DNA of 25,357 bases from the UHGV virus genome UHGV-1360109. One strand, given 5' to 3'. The position numbers and the translations under genes were made by a program. How positions within the stretch are numbered: position 1 is the first letter of the stretch; each line of letters starts with the position of its first letter. Under the pieces are notes generated by a model that was not told the DNA's origin, made no database searches, and saw only the letters and a list, made by a program, of their open reading frames with translations. The DNA is from a virus. Below are positions 13,768 through 25,357 of this stretch, one piece after another.

Positions 13768-14157
13768 TTAACATTTTCTTTTTACTTTTCCAACAAAAGC
13801 TTTGGTTGAATCCATATTCCCATAACCAGAAATGGTTTTTGACATTAAAACTGTTCCAGTAGGATGTATTACCCATGAGTCGATAACGCGTTGAGTTTCG
13901 CCATTCGCGCCGATTCCTATGATGGAGTTTTTAGACAATGCTTTGTAAGCCATGCCGCCCGCATCTGTCCCAGAATATGTGATGCTGGCATCTTCACCGC
14001 TTGTCTTAATGATGAATGTTCCACTAAAACCATCTTCTTCCGGATGGAAATTATTTCGTTCTGAATAGCTTATTCCGCGCATATCTCCAACGACCCAGCA
14101 CTCTGCTGTAGCCCCAAAAGATATGAATAAGAACATAGCAGCAAGAAATTGCTTCAC
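13768..14157 (-). CDS. small exported protein of unknown function (cargo gene)
   Basis: GTG start at 14157 preceded by a perfect TAAGGAGGT SD; N-terminus VKQFLAAMFLFISFGATA|EC is a signal peptide with an A-T-A signal-peptidase site; mature part has Cys near both ends; the longer ORF-track version (to 14373) has an implausible His/Cys-rich extension. Confidence 0.6.
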   Translation of the reverse strand: MKQFLAAMFLFISFGATAECWVVGDMRGISYSERNNFHPEEDGFSGTFIIKTSGEDASITYSGTDAGGMAYKALSKNSIIGIGANGETQRVIDSWVIHPTGTVLMSKTISGYGNMDSTKAFVGKVKRKC

Positions 14158-14187
14158 ACCAACCTCCTTAGTTTTGTGCAGGATACC

Positions 14188-14553
14188 ATGAAAAAAGTTA
14201 ACATTGGAAACGTACCAAAGATGCTCGTTCCGCTCTTTGAGAGCGGTACAATTGTGTTTTGTAGAGACTTTCCAGAATGGCAACGCCTGCATCAAAAACT
14301 TGGTGTGGACGTGCAGGACTCGGACGCCAACGGAGCGTCTCATACAATGAGCAGCGAGAATGGTGTTTTGCATGTGATAGGCGTGTTCAATGGCAAACTA
14401 TCTACTATTGCCCATGAGTGCGCTCACATGGCATTCGATATCTGCTCAAGGGTCGGTGTTGATGTTGAACCAGGAAGAGCCAACGAGACTTACTGCTACT
14501 TAATGAGCAGGCTTGTTGAGTTCTGCGAGCGACATATCAAAAAGCCGGAGTGA
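14188..14553 (+). CDS. small putative zinc metallopeptidase (HExxH motif), family unassigned
   Basis: 121 aa from ATG 14188 (MKKVNIGNVPKMLVPLFESG...); HECAH motif in IAHECAHMAFDICSRVGVDVEPGRANE with Glu 14 and 20 residues downstream; the ORF-track start at 14149 is a TTG. Confidence 0.55.
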   Translation: MKKVNIGNVPKMLVPLFESGTIVFCRDFPEWQRLHQKLGVDVQDSDANGASHTMSSENGVLHVIGVFNGKLSTIAHECAHMAFDICSRVGVDVEPGRANETYCYLMSRLVEFCERHIKKPE

Positions 14554-14884: not shown

Positions 14885-15421
14885 TCAAACAACCCACCAG
14901 TTTGCCTGATTGGATGCCAGCCTTGCAGTTTTTATGGAATTAATTATGCCATGCTCAAGAGCCTTGTTAGCATCCAAAATGGTCGAGTCTGCTATCAGGG
15001 ATGCCCACCTAATATGGGTTCCGATGTCGATATTGAACGTCTCAACGAAGCGATCAAGATCGTTATCGAGGCATTTCCCGTACTCTCTCAATCTGGCATG
15101 GTCGGCGGCTGGGGAGGCAAAGCACCATAATAGAGGATGTAACAGGAATCTTGATAATGGGTTTGCGAAACGTTCTGAGCCAGCCAGGAAAACGATATTA
15201 GCTATGGATTCAACATTGCTTATGTTGTGAGTTCTAACGGTAACAGGGAGTGACTTAAGAAAGTTATACGCAGTAAAGCCAGCGGCAGTTTCCCCTCCCT
15301 GACTTGATATATGGATATTTAATTCAGTTGCGCCTTGAGATAATGCGGTGAGACAGTGGTTCTGAAGTTGCCCAACAGTGGCAGTGTTAACGGGGCATAA
15401 GAAATGAATTGTGTGCAGCAT
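14885..15421 (-). CDS. ClpP/SppA-fold serine peptidase homologue (cargo gene, co-transcribed with mnt)
   Basis: 178 aa; ELNIHISSQGGETAAGFTAYNFLKSLPVTVRTHNISNVESIANIVFLAGSERFANPLSRFLLHP aligns by eye with E. coli ClpP [67 protein letters not shown]; candidate nucleophile Ser and His are in place; start ATG shares one base with the mnt stop (TAATG). Confidence 0.75.
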   Translation of the reverse strand: MLHTIHFLCPVNTATVGQLQNHCLTALSQGATELNIHISSQGGETAAGFTAYNFLKSLPVTVRTHNISNVESIANIVFLAGSERFANPLSRFLLHPLLWCFASPAADHARLREYGKCLDNDLDRFVETFNIDIGTHIRWASLIADSTILDANKALEHGIINSIKTARLASNQANWWVV

Positions 15422-16205: not shown

Positions 16206-17129
16206 ATGACGAGTGTAGCAATTGCAGAACATACAATCAACGTTCCATTCCACGGAACAAATCTCTTTTTGGTCAGCATTAACAATGAACCTTACGTTCC
16301 TATGAAACCCGTTGTAGAAGGCATGGGTATGGTTTGGGCTGCTCAATTTGTTAAATTAAAACAGAGATTTGTCAAAGGTATTTCGGAAATCGAAATACCT
16401 TCTGCTGGCGGTAAACAGTTAATGATATGCCTTGCCTTTCGTAAGTTTGCGGCTTGGCTTTCAAGCATTCAGCCAAACAAAGTCCGCCCTGAAATCCGCG
16501 ACAAGGTAATCCAGTATCAGGAAGAGTGTGACGATGTGCTCTACGAGTACTGGACTAAAGGCTATGTAGTTAACCCACGCAAATCTAAAAAGGCGTTGCC
16601 GGGTAAAATCACCACTGAACAGCAGGAAGCCATTAAACAACTCGTCATGAGTCGCGGTCAGTCTCTGCCAAAAGAAAAACAGGCTAAGGCGATGATCACC
16701 ATGTGGTCGTCACTGAAATCCCATTTTGGATGTTCGTACAAAGAAATCAGTGAGGAGCAGTTTACAGAAGCACTGTCACTTGCAGCTCGAGTTCCGCTTG
16801 AAGGTGAGTTCATCGGCAAACAAGAGAAGAAAACCAACGAGCTTTCTGCAAAAGAAGCAAACAGCCTTGTATGGTTATGGGATTATGCCAACCGCTCACA
16901 GGCATTATTCCGCGAACTGTATCCGGCGCTAAAACAAATTCAATCGAACTATTCCGGCAGATGCTACGACTACGGTCATGAATTCTCGTATGTTATCGGA
17001 ATGGCGAGAGATGTTTTAATCAACCATACACGAGATGTTGATATTAATGAGCCAGACGGACCAACGAATCTTTCCGCATGGATGAGACTTAAGAATAAAG
17101 AATTACCTCCTTCAGTACATAACTACTGA
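16206..17129 (+). CDS. ant: antirepressor Ant
   Basis: 307 aa, close to P22 Ant (300 aa); position after arc; AGGA RBS; followed by a strong terminator. Confidence 0.82.
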
Positions 17130-17229: not shown

Positions 17230-20175
17230 ATGACAGACATTACAGCCAATGTTGTGGTAAGCATGCCTTCGCAACTCTTCACTATGGCGCGTTCTTTTAA
17301 AGCCGTAGCTAATGGCAAAATTTATATCGGTAAAATTGACACTGATCCTGTAAATCCAGAAAACCAGATTCAGGTCTATGTGGAGAATGAAGACGGTTCT
17401 CACGTTCCTGTTTCGCAACCAATAATCATTAACGCTGCTGGATATTCTGTATATAACGGACAGATTGCCAAATTCGTTACCGTGCAAGGCCATTCTATGG
17501 CTGTTTATGATGCGTATGGTGCGCAGCAGTTCTATTTTCCTAATGTGCTGAAGTATGACCCTGATCAACTACGGCAGCAATTAGAAGACCCAGATGGAGC
17601 GAATAAATACCCAAAACTTCAGATAGCAAGATGGAGAGACAGTTATGATGTAAGAGGTTGGGGGGCTATTGGTGATGGTGTTCATGATGATACATCAGCT
17701 CTATCAGAATTACTTTCTGTTGCAACAGGTGGTGAAAAGATAGATGGGCGAGGGCTTACTTTTAAAGTATCAACTCTTCCGGATGTCAGTCGATTTAAAA
17801 ATGCTCGTTTTTTATTTGAGAGAATACCGGGCCAGCCTCTTTTTTATGCTTCTGAAGATTTTATCCAGGGAGAGTTATTTAAAATTACAGATACACCGTG
17901 GTACAACGCCTGGACGCAGGATAAAACGTTTGTATATGACAATGTCATCTATGCGCCTTTTATGGCTGGAGACCGCCATGGTGTAAATAACCTCCATGTT
18001 GCATGGGTTCGCTCAGGAGATGACGGGAAGACCTGGACAACGCCGGAATGGCTTACAGATTTACATGAAAACTATCCCACAGTTAACTATCACTGCATGA
18101 GTATGGGGGTTGTCAGAAATCGCCTTTTTGCTGTAATTGAGACGCGGACCGTGAGAGGAAATAAACTGCAGGTTGCAGAGTTGTGGGATCGCCCAATGAG
18201 TCGCAGCCTTCGCGTTTATGGTGGTATAACGAAAGCAGCAAATCAGCAAGTCGCTTATATTCGCATTACTGATCACGGATTATTTGCTGGTGATTTTGTC
18301 AACTTCTCAAACTCTGGTGTTACAGATGTTACCGGGAATATGACGGTGACTACTGTTATTGATAAAAATACCTTTACAGTTACGACGCAAAATACCCAGG
18401 ATGTGGATCAGAATAACGAGGGTAGATACTGGAGTTTTGGTACATCATTTCACTCGTCACCATGGAGAAAAACCAGTCTTGGAACTATTCCTTCTTTTGT
18501 TGACGGAAGCACTCCTGTTACTGAGATTCACAGTTTTGCGACGATTAGCGATAACAGTTTTGCTGTTGGCTACCATAATGGTGATATTGGTCCACGCGAG
18601 CTTGGGATACTCTATTTCTCTGATGCTTTCGGTTCTCCTGGTAGCTTTGTTCGCAGACGCATACCTGCAGAATATGAGGCGAATGCATCTGAGCCATGTG
18701 TAAAATATTATGATGGCATTCTGTATCTGACGACCAGGGGGACATTAAGTACTCAACCCGGTAGTTCATTGCACAGAAGCTCTGATTTAGGTACATCATG
18801 GAATTCTCTTCGCTTCCCAAATAATGTTCATCACTCAAACCTTCCTTTTGCCAAAGTTGGCGATGAGCTGATTATTTTTGGCAGTGAGCGCGCATTTGGT
18901 GAGTGGGAAGGAGGAGAACCTGATAACCGTTATGCAGGAAATTATCCAAGAACATTTATGACCAGAGTTAACGTCAATGAGTGGAGTCTGGATAATGTAG
19001 AGTGGGTTAATGTTACTGATCAGATTTATCAGGGCGGAATAGTTAACTCTGCGGTTGGTGTTGGTTCAGTTTGTATCAAAGACAACTGGCTGTACTACAT
19101 TTTCGGTGGGGAAGATTTTCTAAACCCATGGAGCATAGGGGATAACAACAGAAAATATCCTTATGTTCACGATGGTCACCCGGCTGATTTGTATTGTTTC
19201 AGGGTGAAAATTAAACAGGAAGAATTTGTTTCAAGGGATTTTGTCTACGGAGCCACTCCTAACAGAACGCTTCCTACTTTTATGTCGACGTCAGGCGTGA
19301 GGACGGTTCCTGTACCCGTTGATTTCACAGATGATGTTGCCGTCCAGTCACTGACTGTCCATGCAGGTACATCAGGACAAGTTCGCGCGGAAGTCAAACT
19401 TGAGGGTAATTACGCCATTATTGCGAAGAAAGTACCGTCTGATGATGTTACCGCTCAGAGATTAATCGTTAGCGGCGGTGAAACAACGTCTTCAGCAGAT
19501 GGTGCAATGATAACGTTGCATGGTTCCAGAAGCAGTACTCCACGTCGCGCGGTATATAACGCACTCGAACATCTTTTTGAGAACGGAGATGTTAAACCTT
19601 ATCTTGATAATGTAAATGCTCTTGGTGGTCCGGGAAACAGGTTCTCGATAGTTTATCTTGGCTCCAATCCTGTGGTTACCAGTGACGGAACATTAAAGAC
19701 AGAGCCGGTCTCTCCTGACGAAACATTGCTGGATGCCTGGGGTGACGTCAGGTATATCGCTTATAAATGGCTGAACGCTGTCGCTATAAAGGGGGAAGAA
19801 GGGGCGAGGATACATCATGGTGTAATCGCGCAGCAACTTCGTGATGTTCTTATTTCTCACGGACTCATGGAAGAAGAAAGCACAACATGCCGCTATGCGT
19901 TTCTTTGCTATGACGATTATCCCGCAGTATATGATGACGTCATTACTGGCCAAAGGGAAATGCCGCTGACTGATAATGACGGGAGCATCATTGTTGATGA
20001 GGATGATAATCCAGTGATGGTAATGGAAGACATCATTGAGCGCGTTGAAATAACGCCAGCAGGATCTAGATGGGGGGTCAGGCCTGATCTCTTATTCTAT
20101 ATCGAGGCGGCATGGCAGCGCAGAGAAATGGATAAGATAAAAGCTAGGTTAGACTTAATAGAAGGGAAGCACTAA
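17230..20175 (+). CDS. tailspike: P22 gp9-like head-binding N-terminus fused to an endosialidase body with a C-terminal intramolecular chaperone domain
   Basis: 981 aa; first ~110 aa ([59 protein letters not shown]...[15 protein letters not shown]...VLKYDPDQ) match the P22 tailspike N-terminus; Asp-box motifs SGDDGKTW and SSDLGTSW; TSDGTLK near the C-terminal ~160 aa fits the Ser-Lys auto-cleaving chaperone pattern; GGAG RBS. Confidence 0.88.
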
Positions 20176-20321
20176 ATGTTTCGTTGGCGTCAAAAATATG
20201 AACTGCTCACATAAAGAAGTAAGTACATTGGCAAAAAACATTGACGTCAACGAAATTAAATATAAAACATCATGCAGACATATTACCAATATTAATATAA
20301 GGTAATAAAAATATAATTTAC

Positions 20322-20348
20322 AAAAAAGGCCCGTTGGAAGCGACGGGC
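20322..20348 (-). terminator. minus-strand rho-independent terminator beyond attP (possible tI/sib analogue)
   Basis: Minus strand reads GCCCGT-CGCTTCCA-ACGGGC followed by CTTTTTT; sits where leftward transcripts through int and att would end. Confidence 0.5.
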
Positions 20349-20654
20349 ATTAACCGCGGTAATGGATAAATTATTAATGTTTTTAGATTGTGAACGATAT
20401 CATATTGTGCGGAAGTAGTGAAGTAACCATGTAAAATGATTGTTTCATAGCCTATGAGACACACAAGGCTTTGTGCTCTTCGATAGTTGTTAAGGCGGAT
20501 CACTCTACCTTCTCATCAATCCAGTCCGCCCCCACTGCATCATTTCTCTGCGCTTATCGAGATACTGAGCATGGTTGTAAATTCAACTAACCCAGTCCGT
20601 TGACAAAAAATTAGCGCAAGAGGACAAAAAATCACCTTGCGCTAATGCTCTGCC

Positions 20655-20885
20655 TCAGGTCACTAATACTATCTAAGTAGTTGATTCATAGTGACTGGAT
20701 ATGTTGTGTTTTGTCGCGTTTTGCAGTCTATTATTTAATCATTAAGTAATCTAATACTATGATTTTTAAATTATTTATGTGGTTTTGTCATCCTTAAGGT
20801 GAATAAGTTGTATATTTAAAATATCTTTTGTTATCAATGAATTAATGTAAGCAGGTCATTATTAGTCAAAATAAAATCATTTGTC
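20655..20885. other. lambda-like attP region (arm-type Int sites); core not pinpointed
   Basis: CAGGTCACTAATACTATCTAAGTAGTTGATTCATAGTGACTGGATATGTTGTGTTTT (P arm) and AGGTCATTATTAGTCAAAATAAAATCATTTG (P' arm, overlapping the int 3' end) closely match lambda attP arm sequences; the central ~100 bp differs from lambda. Confidence 0.7.
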
Positions 20886-21950
20886 GATTTCAATTTTGTC
20901 CCATTCCCGTCCACGGCTGTCCCTATACCGCGCCGCCATTGAATCTGATTTATGCCCGAGAAGACGTTGAGCAAACTTATCGCCAATCTGGTTCCGGTAT
21001 AGCCTCGCTGACAGGCTACGCAGTTCATGGAATGTTGGCGGGTTTCCATCAAATGAGAGTCCAGATGCATTTCTCGCCTTTGTAAAATACTTTGATACTG
21101 TTTTCGGGGAAAGCGGATCGTGATGCTTTGATGCGATTATAGTTTCACTGCTGCTGGCCTCCCTGCATTTCTGTAGTGTATCAGCCAATGAGATATTGAG
21201 CGCGTCAATCGTTAGCGTTAGCGGAATGGCGAGTTTAGCCCCTGTTTTACTCTGTTCAATGTGAAGATGGTTGTCGTTTATGTCTGACCATTTCATTCTG
21301 CACAAATCGCCGACTCTCTGCCCTGTAACGACGGCCAAATCCATCGCCAGCCTTAGCCAGATAGGGAGAGGTTCGGCTGCATGGTAAATCTCGACATACT
21401 CATTAGCTGTCAGCCTTGAGCGCCTTACTTCTGACTTTGCTGTACGGGTTGCTGTTACCGGATTCGTTGCCACATGCCCCTCGGCTATTGCTTCACGAAA
21501 AACGTCAACAAGGGTTGACCTGATTAATTTTGCGGAAGCTGCTTTACCTTCCGCTACGTAGGTGTTTAGCATTGCTGCCACATCTTTCGTTGATATGTCA
21601 GTGAGCGGTTTGTCCGGCAATTTTCTTCGGATTGCCCTGATTTTGCTGGCGTAGTCGAGTAGAGTTTTCGGCCTGATCCCCCTTTCGGTGAGGATTCTTT
21701 CATATCGGTCAAGCCACACATGAAGAGTGATTGCGTCACCGCCTTTAATTCTGTCTATCAGTGATTTGCGTCCGCTGTCTGAGAGTAACTCAATATTGGC
21801 CTGTATTGCTTCAGTGATTGCTATCCTCCTGTCTCGGCCTAATCCAAACTCTTTACCCGTCCTTGGGTCCCTGTAGCAGTAATATCCATTGTTTCTTATA
21901 TAAAGGTTAGGGGGTAAATCCCGGCGCTCATGACTTCGCCTTCTTCCCAT
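20877..21950 (-). CDS. int: integrase, lambda Int family tyrosine recombinase
   Basis: 357 aa; N-terminus MGRRRSHERRDLPPNLYIRNNGYYCYRDPRTGKEFGLGRDRRIAITEAIQAN and C-terminus HELRSLSARLY...LLGHKSD...YRD.RGREWDKIEI match lambda Int as I recall it. Confidence 0.95.
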   Translation of the reverse strand: MGRRRSHERRDLPPNLYIRNNGYYCYRDPRTGKEFGLGRDRRIAITEAIQANIELLSDSGRKSLIDRIKGGDAITLHVWLDRYERILTERGIRPKTLLDYASKIRAIRRKLPDKPLTDISTKDVAAMLNTYVAEGKAASAKLIRSTLVDVFREAIAEGHVATNPVTATRTAKSEVRRSRLTANEYVEIYHAAEPLPIWLRLAMDLAVVTGQRVGDLCRMKWSDINDNHLHIEQSKTGAKLAIPLTLTIDALNISLADTLQKCREASSSETIIASKHHDPLSPKTVSKYFTKARNASGLSFDGNPPTFHELRSLSARLYRNQIGDKFAQRLLGHKSDSMAARYRDSRGREWDKIEIDK

Positions 21951-22231: not shown

Positions 22232-22855
22232 TTAAAATTCGAATTGTCTCGCCCGAAGGCTTTTCAACATTGGTCTTGCCCGTTCGAAAACGGCGCTTGC
22301 CTGGTCAAGTCGTGTCGCCTCCCTGAGCAGTACATCTCTGTTTTTCGTCACCGCATAGAAGGTTTCAAACGCAATGTCATACAGCTTACTCGCGTATGAT
22401 GAGTTAAGTTCCTTCATTATCGGGTACAGGCGTTTGCAGATGTCCTGTGCATTCTCCATCTGTACCTGCATGTAGCAGAGGAGGATGATTTCCTCGTCTG
22501 TGAATTGCTGCGCTGGTTGCATGCTGCGAAGTTTCTTTTCGCACTCGATGAAGTATCGGCGTATCTGGCGGCCTTTTTCGTTGCGCTCGACCATCGCAGT
22601 TTCTTTGGCCGTATCGAGGGTGAGGTGATAGTCTTTGCTACGGCGATCGCCTCCTCGACCTTTGATTTCCCGATTTGGGGAAACCAAAATATAGTCCTGA
22701 TTTTCAACGAAACCATATTCAGCAATGCGTTCTGTAATCCACGATGCAAAGCGTTTACCTACCCCAAGAAAAGTATGTAAATCGCGAGCATTAACGAGAA
22801 GAGTGGTTTCGTTGGCGATAGTGCCGTTGAATACGGGGATGAGTTGAATAGCCAT
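22232..22855 (-). CDS. antirepressor-like protein (Bro-N/AntA-type N-terminal domain)
   Basis: 207 aa from ATG 22855 with AGGAG 9 nt upstream; N-terminus MAIQLIPVFNGTIANETTLLVNARDLHTFLGVGKRFASWITERIAEYGFVENQDYI resembles phage AntA/Bro-N domains; ORF-track start at 22891 is a longer alternative. Confidence 0.65.
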   Translation of the reverse strand: MAIQLIPVFNGTIANETTLLVNARDLHTFLGVGKRFASWITERIAEYGFVENQDYILVSPNREIKGRGGDRRSKDYHLTLDTAKETAMVERNEKGRQIRRYFIECEKKLRSMQPAQQFTDEEIILLCYMQVQMENAQDICKRLYPIMKELNSSYASKLYDIAFETFYAVTKNRDVLLREATRLDQASAVFERARPMLKSLRARQFEF

Positions 22856-23196
22856 AATCATGACTCCTGACGTTTTAGTATTGACTGCCACCTTAGTGGG
22901 GTGGCGGGCTTCAACTACCGCGTCAGACGGCGGAGCTTATTTCCCGAAAGGGTGTTCTATTAGGCTCTCTCGACCCGCCATAGATATGGCGATACCTGTA
23001 AACAGGCATAAAAAAGCCGCAAAGCTATCGGGTGCGGTTGACCGCTGACGTTGTAGTGCGGTCAGTATGCGATAGCTCTGGCGGATTTGTCAAATCATGT
23101 AGCCTTTATCCTGCTGTAAGCCGCGCCATTCGGGATTTTCCCCATATTTGGGGAAAACTATCTGCGAAGTATTCACCTTTGACGGCAAGTTGCAGG

Positions 23197-24256: not shown

Positions 24257-24448
24257 CTATTTCACCTTAATCTCAACATTTCGCAGCTTTAGCTCTACTG
24301 GCAGGTCTGACTTTCCTGTTAATGCTAATGCGAGATTTTCTGGAGTAATGAGAGCAGTTATTGTTTTCCCCATCGCCAGACGAATAATCATTCGTATCTC
24401 GCAATCGTCACATGCTCCAGGTCGAACAATTGATATTTGTCCATTCAT
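24257..24448 (-). CDS. small hypothetical protein
   Basis: 63 aa from ATG 24448 (MNGQISIVRPG...), with AGGAG 8 nt upstream and start 1 nt after the Ea22-like stop; the ORF-track start at 24502 would overlap the upstream gene by 53 nt. Confidence 0.45.
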   Translation of the reverse strand: MNGQISIVRPGACDDCEIRMIIRLAMGKTITALITPENLALALTGKSDLPVELKLRNVEIKVK

Positions 24449-24449
24449 C

Positions 24450-25055
24450 TCACGCTCCTTTGATGCGAATGCCAGCGACGCGTAATGCGTGTTCCAGGTC
24501 AATCAGGTAAAGCCAACTGCCATTTTCTTTAGGTATCATGACATGTCGCTCATCTGCATTTATCGGGTGTCCATATCGAAGGTCGTAGCGAGTCGGTAAT
24601 TGAACTTCCCGCGCTTCCAGTTCAGCAATACGCTTCTCTGCGGCCTCTGCCCTGCATTGTTCCCGTTGGAACATTTTGTGGGTGCGGTCGAGCGCCTCAA
24701 GTCTAGCTGCTGATGTTTTCTCTTCTGCTTCAAGCTCAACGCGCAGCTTCCCTACCGTTAGCGCAATATCCTCGTTCTCCTGGTCGCGGGATTTGATGTA
24801 TTGCAGGTTTCTTTCCCGTTCATCCAGCAGCGCCTGCACTACTTCAGGGTTGAAAGCTGCGATATAACGAGCGTTGTTCTCTGCGTTTTTCTGTTCGTCG
24901 AATCCTGGCCAGTCGACAATATCTCCGTGATGATTATCACCTGGTGTGTGTACGGCGTACGTGCCGTATTTGCCCGGCGAAATAAATGCGACCCATTCGC
25001 CTTGTGTTGCCTGTTTTGCTATCTCACGCAGTGCCTGATAGTTAATTTTGGTCAT
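24450..25055 (-). CDS. Ead/Ea22-like protein
   Basis: 201 aa; N-terminus MTKINYQALREIAKQATQGEW is the characteristic Ea22-like start; coiled-coil-like middle. Confidence 0.75.
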   Translation of the reverse strand: MTKINYQALREIAKQATQGEWVAFISPGKYGTYAVHTPGDNHHGDIVDWPGFDEQKNAENNARYIAAFNPEVVQALLDERERNLQYIKSRDQENEDIALTVGKLRVELEAEEKTSAARLEALDRTHKMFQREQCRAEAAEKRIAELEAREVQLPTRYDLRYGHPINADERHVMIPKENGSWLYLIDLEHALRVAGIRIKGA

Positions 25056-25104
25056 ATCACATCACCCTGAAGCCGTTGCATTTACGTAAAAAATCGCAGA
25101 TATA

Positions 25105-25357
25105 GCCCTTCATTTTTTCGTGCCAATCTCGATCATTCCCATTGCACCAACCATCTGTTGGAATGCCGAATCACACATGGTTTTGCGTACTTGATATCGA
25201 TGGTATGGATGCGTTGGTTGACACTCGTCATTACTGCGATACCGCAACAGCTACTCCGGCGAAAGCAAAGAAAATGGCTGCTCTGATAGAAAACTGGACT
25301 CCACCTGATGGTTGGTGCAATGGGAATGATCGAGATTGGCACGAAAAAATGAAGGGC
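25105..25357. repeat. perfect 51-bp inverted repeat pair (25105-25155 and 25307-25357) around a 151-bp spacer
   Basis: Reverse complement of GCCCTTCATTTTTTCGTGCCAATCTCGATCATTCCCATTGCACCAACCATC equals 25307-25357 exactly; right arm is cut by the window end. Confidence 0.9.
25163..25357 (+). CDS. partial plus-strand ORF running off the window end (start uncertain: 25163, 25205 or 25274)
   Basis: Frame open from 25106 to the window edge; reads ...MAALIENWTPPDGWCNGNDRDWHEKMKG; no strong SD at any candidate start; absent from the ORF track, presumably because no stop is reached. Confidence 0.3.
   Translation, partial: MPNHTWFCVLDIDGMDALVDTRHYCDTATATPAKAKKMAALIENWTPPDGWCNGNDRDWHEKMKG

Follow-up and report, generated by a model that had tools for sequence, protein, structure and literature searches.

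An inverted repeat at the right end of a P22-like phage sequence: two opposed pieces of one DUF7739 gene and a probable chimeric origin

The right edge of the viral sequence UHGV-1360109 raises a question of origin. A small gene is found there in two pieces that read in opposite directions and share an inverted repeat, and such an arrangement might be a switch that the phage throws, the trace of an inversion, a pair of inverted gene copies, a fold-back formed during replication, or a product of sequencing and assembly. We addressed the question in the window, by which we mean the whole stretch of 25,357 nucleotides that was analysed, and at the corresponding locus of related phages and genomes.

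By its gene content, the window reads as a fragment of about 25 kb of a P22-like phage (CUS-3-like, with a K1 endosialidase), a genome type of about 40 kb. The genes that orient the reader are the following:

223-648, Sf6-type small terminase gene, followed by plus-strand structural genes.
17230-20175, plus strand, tailspike gene of 981 aa, a K1-type endosialidase with the domains End_N_terminal, End_beta_propel, End_tail_spike and Peptidase_S74, as in CUS-3.
20877-21950, minus strand, lambda-type integrase gene.
24450-25055, minus strand, Ead/Ea22-like gene of 201 aa (Pfam PF13935, E = 1.2e-33), annotated as ead/Ea22-like in its RefSeq neighbours.

An AntA-like gene and genes for DUF4752 and DUF551 proteins also lie on the minus strand. 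The endosialidase tailspike predicts a phage specific for the K1 capsule. An identical tailspike protein is on record from run SRR12234489, and the tailspike and the integrase are recorded solely in other phages or prophages; the exact protein look-up returned no identical proteins on record for the Ea22-like, DUF551 and AntA-like products.

Regarding the form of the phage, prophages integrated beside torS match the window only from position 20793 rightwards, and a Logan contig with the identical tailspike matches positions 20000-20803 and ends there. Therefore, the window spans attP and corresponds to the free or circular form of the phage, not to an integrated prophage. The attP region (20793-20803, in the context 20176-20876) is contiguous in the window. 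At the left end, positions 1-222 hold a cut ORF with its stop at 142-144 and then a 23-codon ORF at 146-217, upstream of the small terminase gene. The match to phage phiv205-1 reaches base 1, so the left end is not a natural genome terminus either.

Some other genes of the window may be recorded here. The immI-like region contains an ORF of 178 aa for a ClpP-like protease (14885-15421, minus strand; PF00574, E = 2e-11), which lies between the injection genes and a P22-type antirepressor gene (16206-17129), and the same arrangement is seen in one Logan contig (L003), beside Arc-like repressors. Two antirepressor-type genes are present, namely an AntA/P22_AR_C gene at 22232-22891 (minus strand), between xis/int and the early-left genes, and the P22_AR_N/P22_AR_C gene of the immI-like region just mentioned, on the plus strand. 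Two ORFs gave no Pfam match, one of 201 aa at 13768-14373 and one of 81 aa at 24257-24502, both on the minus strand; the former occupies the position of superinfection-exclusion or moron genes in P22-like phages.

The repeat at the right end is there as the initial annotation had described it. The repeat scan, run on the terminal 1.3 kb as well as on the complete window, recovered a perfect core of 51 nt (25105-25155 and 25307-25357) around a spacer of 151 nt (25156-25306), the arms extending to 58 nt with 2 mismatches (25105-25162 and 25300-25357), and no other sizeable repeat across the 25,357 nt. By our own arithmetic (about 3e8 position pairs times 4^-51), around 6e-23 perfect inverted repeats of 51 nt are expected by chance. 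As single-stranded DNA, the repeat region has a folding energy of -77.8 kcal/mol, whereas shuffled sequences give -30.6 +/- 3.6 (z = -13). Both arms encode one and the same peptide of 17 residues, DGWCNGNDRDWHEKMKG, which bears out what had been read from the arms before. The last base of the right arm is the final base of the window, 25357, and consequently the length of 51 is set by the end of the sequence.

In order to place the two pieces, we tiled them on an intact allele of 300 nt, the DUF7739 (Sf6 gene 22-like) gene of Escherichia coli S56, whose numbering is used below for all gene positions (nt). The features of the locus are these:

25025-25055, no strand, conserved mosaic boundary where the Ea22-like gene begins; identity with the 16 IMG/VR relatives described below extends no further left.
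25057-25155, minus strand, 3' remnant of the DUF7739 gene, gene nt 202-300 (codons 68-99 and the TGA stop), 100% identical to the S56 allele.
25105-25155, left arm of the repeat, no strand, reverse complement of gene nt 202-252.
25150-25155, no strand, junction microhomology ACCATC, 6 nt and perfect, where gene nt 45-50 are the reverse complement of nt 202-207.
25150-25357, plus strand, second piece of the DUF7739 gene, gene nt 45-252, truncated at both ends, 100% identical over 208 nt to E. coli S56 and MB06231.
25156-25306, plus strand, spacer, gene nt 51-201, opposed to the operon, 100% identical to the S56 allele and 98% to Sf6 gene 22.
25171-25173, minus strand, in-frame TGA six codons upstream of the remnant, read from the sequence.
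25307-25357, plus strand, right arm, gene nt 202-252, running on from the spacer.

This tiling agrees with the earlier view of a single small gene upstream of Ea22 that occurs as a 3' remnant on the minus strand and a piece on the plus strand. The two pieces jointly cover nt 45-300 of a single gene copy, the offset between the joined strands being 151 nt, and neither of them diverges independently from the S56 allele. The sole part of the gene that is absent from the window is nt 1-44 with the native GTG start. Thus, the topology is that of a fold-back, an inverted duplication with a loop of 151 nt, and as a description of topology the term inverted duplication, used by the initial annotation, was right. 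The microhomology ACCATC lies inside an imperfect native inverted repeat (11 of 14 positions, gene nt 45-58 and 194-207). Pairs of this type number 12 in 900 nt, as compared with 8.1 +/- 5.1 in shuffled sequences, and are therefore no commoner than chance, for which reason the native short inverted repeat was rejected as a special element.

The remnant keeps its canonical place and orientation upstream of the Ea22-like gene. Its tail, YICDFLRKCNGFRVM followed by the stop, and the in-frame TGA at 25173-25171 with no start codon between them had been correctly read; this TGA arises from the junction. The stop of the remnant does precede the Ea22-like start, but the two do not overlap as had been thought, because the stop occupies 25059-25057 and the ATG 25055-25053, with 1 base between them as in Sf6. 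The plus-strand frame is open from 25103 and its first in-frame ATG is at 25163 (Met20 of the family protein), so the ATG at 25274, previously taken as the start of a plus-strand gene, is only Met57. The hexamer TTGACA is indeed found at 25218-25223. However, it was ruled out as a promoter, since it has no matching -10 partner and lies inside coding sequence (Val-Asp-Thr), and the promoter scan gave no promoter-like sites around it.

The family to which both pieces belong is known from Sf6 gene 22 and HK75 gp27; RefSeq annotates it as DUF7739 and PHROGs labels it as of unknown function. The plus-strand piece matches the Pfam profile DUF7739 (PF24881) with 56.7 bits (cut-off 27; E = 3.8e-15) over profile positions 17-86 of 98, and the intact S56 protein matches it with 75.8 bits and phrog_1239 with E = 2.8e-55. 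We found no solved structure for a DUF7739 protein. In Sf6, E. coli S56, MB06231 and an NCBI scaffold (L008) the gene has 99 codons and is located directly upstream of Ea22, in the same orientation and 1 base apart; HK75 has the intact gene of 99 aa too, but no annotated Ea22 downstream. On the other side of the DUF7739 gene, upstream of it, relatives carry an ORF of the 166-aa type. The window shares with this family the position of the remnant, 1 base upstream of the Ea22-like gene. Nevertheless, whereas each relative examined has one full-length copy of about 99 codons, the window has no complete ORF of about 99 codons upstream of Ead/Ea22; only codons 68-99 stand in the canonical place, and nt 45-300 are distributed over two opposed pieces.

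We then compared the locus with the 16 IMG/VR contigs that contain an exact 52-mer across the Ea22 start and the gene 22 end. Between about 25025 and 25155 none of the 16 loci differs from the window, their first mismatches fall at 25156 and 25158, and past 25155 every one of them runs on into the antisense strand of the gene. Fifteen of them encode the canonical 99-aa protein and the remaining one has a mosaic N-terminal half. In the latter (L028, IMGVR_UViG_3300045988_072300) the DUF7739 protein bears no relation to the canonical one in its N-terminal half, as far as about codon 44, just before CDTATATP, which points to a natural mosaic breakpoint inside the DUF7739 gene, elsewhere than the fold-back junction. 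The left limit of identity, 25025-25055, corresponds to the Sf6 feature 'bsq3; boundary sequence', that is, the first 31 nt of gene 21, and seems to be a conserved mosaic joint where modules of early-left genes meet.

At 25155 the canonical continuation is ...CCAACCATC followed by AGGTGGAGTCCAG...; the canonical sequence would be window positions 1-25155 joined to the reverse complement of gene nt 201-1 (...CCAACCATC followed by AGGTGGAGTCCAGTTTTCTATCAGAGC...). By contrast, the junction of the window was found nowhere else. Among 5426 complete E. coli genomes the gene itself occurs in 431 and a junction-spanning sequence in none; no phage record spans the junction, and neither an exact junction 35-mer nor a degenerate 23-mer matched any contig in the viral, genome and metagenome collections. 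The junction is therefore a singleton among the collections searched.

These data bear on the explanations that involve a rearrangement of the gene by inversion. A programmed invertible segment, in which the 51-bp arms would be recombination sites and the 151-bp spacer would turn the small gene on and off, is suggested by a perfect inverted repeat that flanks a short segment and by the TTGACA hexamer in the spacer. Nevertheless, we hold it for the least credible of the explanations considered. The arms are not short sites but the same coding stretch of one gene (nt 202-252), and the spacer continues into the right arm without interruption. A flip of the spacer would only place the local sequence, unchanged, on the opposite strand; it would rebuild nt 51-300 (codons 18-99) and never supply nt 1-44 and the GTG, and consequently the intact gene that the initial annotation expected from such a flip is not obtained. 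Furthermore, when the ORFs beside the segment and the other non-structural ORFs were scanned with Pfam, neither a serine invertase nor a second recombinase was seen. The scans gave a single recombinase, the lambda-type integrase at a distance of about 3.2 kb; the other large ORFs have matches among P22-like structural genes. An invertase-driven switch was thus ruled out, there being no invertase among the scanned ORFs and no promoter-like site. The arrangement is also present in no relative, all of which show the canonical uninterrupted gene alone, and the junction in no other genome or contig, so that the invertible segment proposed by the initial annotation does not hold. The likeness to the Hin, Gin, Cin, Pin and Fim switches is confined to the superficial picture of an inverted repeat flanking a short segment; unlike those systems, this locus has no invertase, no promoter and no alternative gene ends, and its arms are duplicated coding sequence instead of short recombination sites.

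A simple inversion between short native inverted repeats, or between two inverted paralogues that existed beforehand, is hardly more credible and in our opinion very improbable. What speaks for the former is that a short native inverted repeat lies exactly at the junction. However, had the stretch between nt 45-50 and nt 202-207 been inverted, the antisense of nt 44-1 (ATTTGTTGCCCACG...) should come after the spacer, whereas in the window nt 208-252 (TGGTGCAATGGG...) stand there. With the wrong sequence after the spacer, a simple inversion is rejected from the sequence itself. As for paralogues, the plus-strand copy begins at nt 45, which is exactly the junction, so it is incomplete as a second paralogue, and a complete one was ruled out; moreover, neither piece has diverged on its own from the single allele. 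The recent inversion between inverted copies that had been put forward is contradicted by the same facts, because the arms are one stretch of a single allele and the spacer and right arm together form nt 45-252 unbroken.

Two explanations of the fold-back itself are left, and they share the anatomy of the junction. We think that the feature is probably an inverted chimera, that is, a sequencing or assembly artefact that was fixed at a contig end, and that the real genome has one intact DUF7739 gene. The anatomy of the junction, its microhomology, the derivation of both pieces from one allele, the failure of a simple inversion and the absence of the junction elsewhere are shown by the sequences compared, whereas we infer that the window stops at a contig end and that the junction was formed in vitro, not inside the phage; the initial annotation had named an assembly artefact at a contig end as the case that would speak against its proposals, and it is this case that the evidence favours, the contig end being part of what we infer. 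The picture of a split gene whose spacer can invert most likely does not describe a real biological feature.

The sequence runs through the genes of the leftward operon in their normal order up to nt 202 of the DUF7739 gene, then turns round, at a distance of 151 nt, onto the other strand of this gene and goes back over itself for 202 nt to the end. Opposite strands of one locus, joined 151 nt apart on a complementarity of 6 nt, point to an event in which a 3' end left its template and annealed; this 3' end would have annealed to the nearby complementary strand at the microhomology and been extended there. Such a chimera could come from strand-displacement amplification, or from end-repair at short inverted repeats during library preparation. 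The assembler would then have taken it in at the contig end, and a graph assembler would be expected to halt about one k-mer after re-entering its own reverse complement. In the assembly graph this would give a hairpin, whose path goes from the arm over the junction and through nt 51-201 back into the same arm, now read backwards. Travelled one way or the other, the hairpin would yield the two spacer orientations that the initial annotation suggested looking for, and each of them would hold the same single non-canonical adjacency. The inverted repeat would have no biological function.

Several facts argue for the chimera. Several features by which such joins are recognised were found here, namely opposed segments of one locus, microhomology at the join, origin from a single copy, a normal arrangement in the relatives and a junction that is not reproduced elsewhere. 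The repeat arm reaches the last base, 202 nt past the junction, and genes are truncated at either end of the window; a piece of about 25 kb from a phage type of about 40 kb is what one expects of a fragmented assembly. Multiple displacement amplification (MDA) is known to produce chimeras of which 85% are inverted joins with an intervening deletion, mostly between segments less than 10 kb apart, and 93.5% of these inverted chimeras show complementarity at the junction (Lasken & Stockwell 2007, PMC1855051). In libraries made by sonication and end-repair, chimeric reads form at natural inverted repeats and have the sequence between the repeats reverse-complemented (PMC10908179), and two further papers report fold-back artefacts in long reads as well (PMC12870357, PMC13141652).

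Two points stand against an artefact. First, 51 is not a default k of the most common assemblers in current use; for this reason, and because the contig end is only probable, we put no weight on the 51-nt terminal overlap as a clue to the assembler. Secondly, with an abundant canonical continuation a strict unitig ought to stop at 25155, where the path branches, but the sequence runs through it. The run-through fits low local coverage, a non-graph assembler or a choice of path, and it fits a real fold-back molecule equally well. Such a real molecule is the other explanation, which we consider unlikely, though far less so than the inversions. It would be a snap-back, that is, a quasi-palindromic and defective P22-like phage genome, formed when a replication fork made a U-turn inside the DUF7739 gene and packaged from pac. 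The nascent strand would have switched template at the short inverted repeat, gene nt 45-50 and 202-207, giving a genome of the form terS...int...Ea22, loop of 151 nt, Ea22...int..., unable to replicate by itself and captured in virion DNA; an assembler would collapse its two arms into one contig that ends one k-mer past the loop. The microhomology, the short inverted repeat and the offset of 151 nt are as compatible with this as with the chimera, and a real inverted duplication, once collapsed, gives exactly such a contig shape. The unbroken run through 25155 is slightly easier to understand if the canonical continuation was rare, and replication intermediates are plausible because the window is a free phage form. 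The mechanism has been documented in other systems, where the same type of junction forms in vivo by replication template switching or a fork U-turn (ODIRA, snap-back and tandem inversion duplication), according to PMC4689423 and the work of Kugelberg 2010 cited there.

Nevertheless, a molecule that lacks the genes to the right of gene 22, that is, those for recombination, immunity, replication and lysis, could be at most a minor defective species. It would also be a singleton, absent from all the collections searched, and artefactual inverted chimeras are far commoner in sequence data. Long palindromes, moreover, are unstable in E. coli.

The chimera reading also places the junction close to artefacts that have been described. 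As in the inverted MDA chimeras of Lasken & Stockwell (2007, PMC1855051), the second segment has its orientation reversed and derives from the same locus, here 151 nt away, in the form of an inverted sequence with intervening deletion; the joins of those chimeras have 2-21 bp of complementarity and the one studied here has 6 nt. However, MDA chimeras were seen in single reads of amplified DNA, whereas the present sequence is assembled, from DNA that may or may not have been amplified. With the artefacts of PMC10908179, PMC12870357 and PMC13141652, the window shares a junction on a natural inverted repeat and the reverse-complemented sequence between the repeats; those are low-frequency artefacts at the level of reads in human data, while here the artefact would have been fixed into a contig end. 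The junction architecture, a short inverted repeat with a small loop, is also identical to that of ODIRA (PMC4689423) and of the Salmonella tandem inversion duplication (Kugelberg et al. 2010, as cited there). Those are selected chromosomal amplifications with a second junction and a change in copy number, whereas here the product would be a defective phage genome and the sequence ends 202 nt past the junction. The gene family, the gene order and the mechanisms of artefactual and natural fold-backs are all already known.

The case is mainly a caution. When an inverted repeat stands at the exact end of a sequence and its arms are the same piece of a gene, a fold-back junction should be considered before a switch. 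The diagnostic can be used in other scans as well: the arms are tiled on an intact allele, a microhomology is sought at the turn, and the prediction of a simple inversion is checked against the sequence. If the junction were real after all, it would be one example of a defective phage genome formed by template switching, and as this mechanism has already been well described elsewhere, even then only a modest gain would follow.
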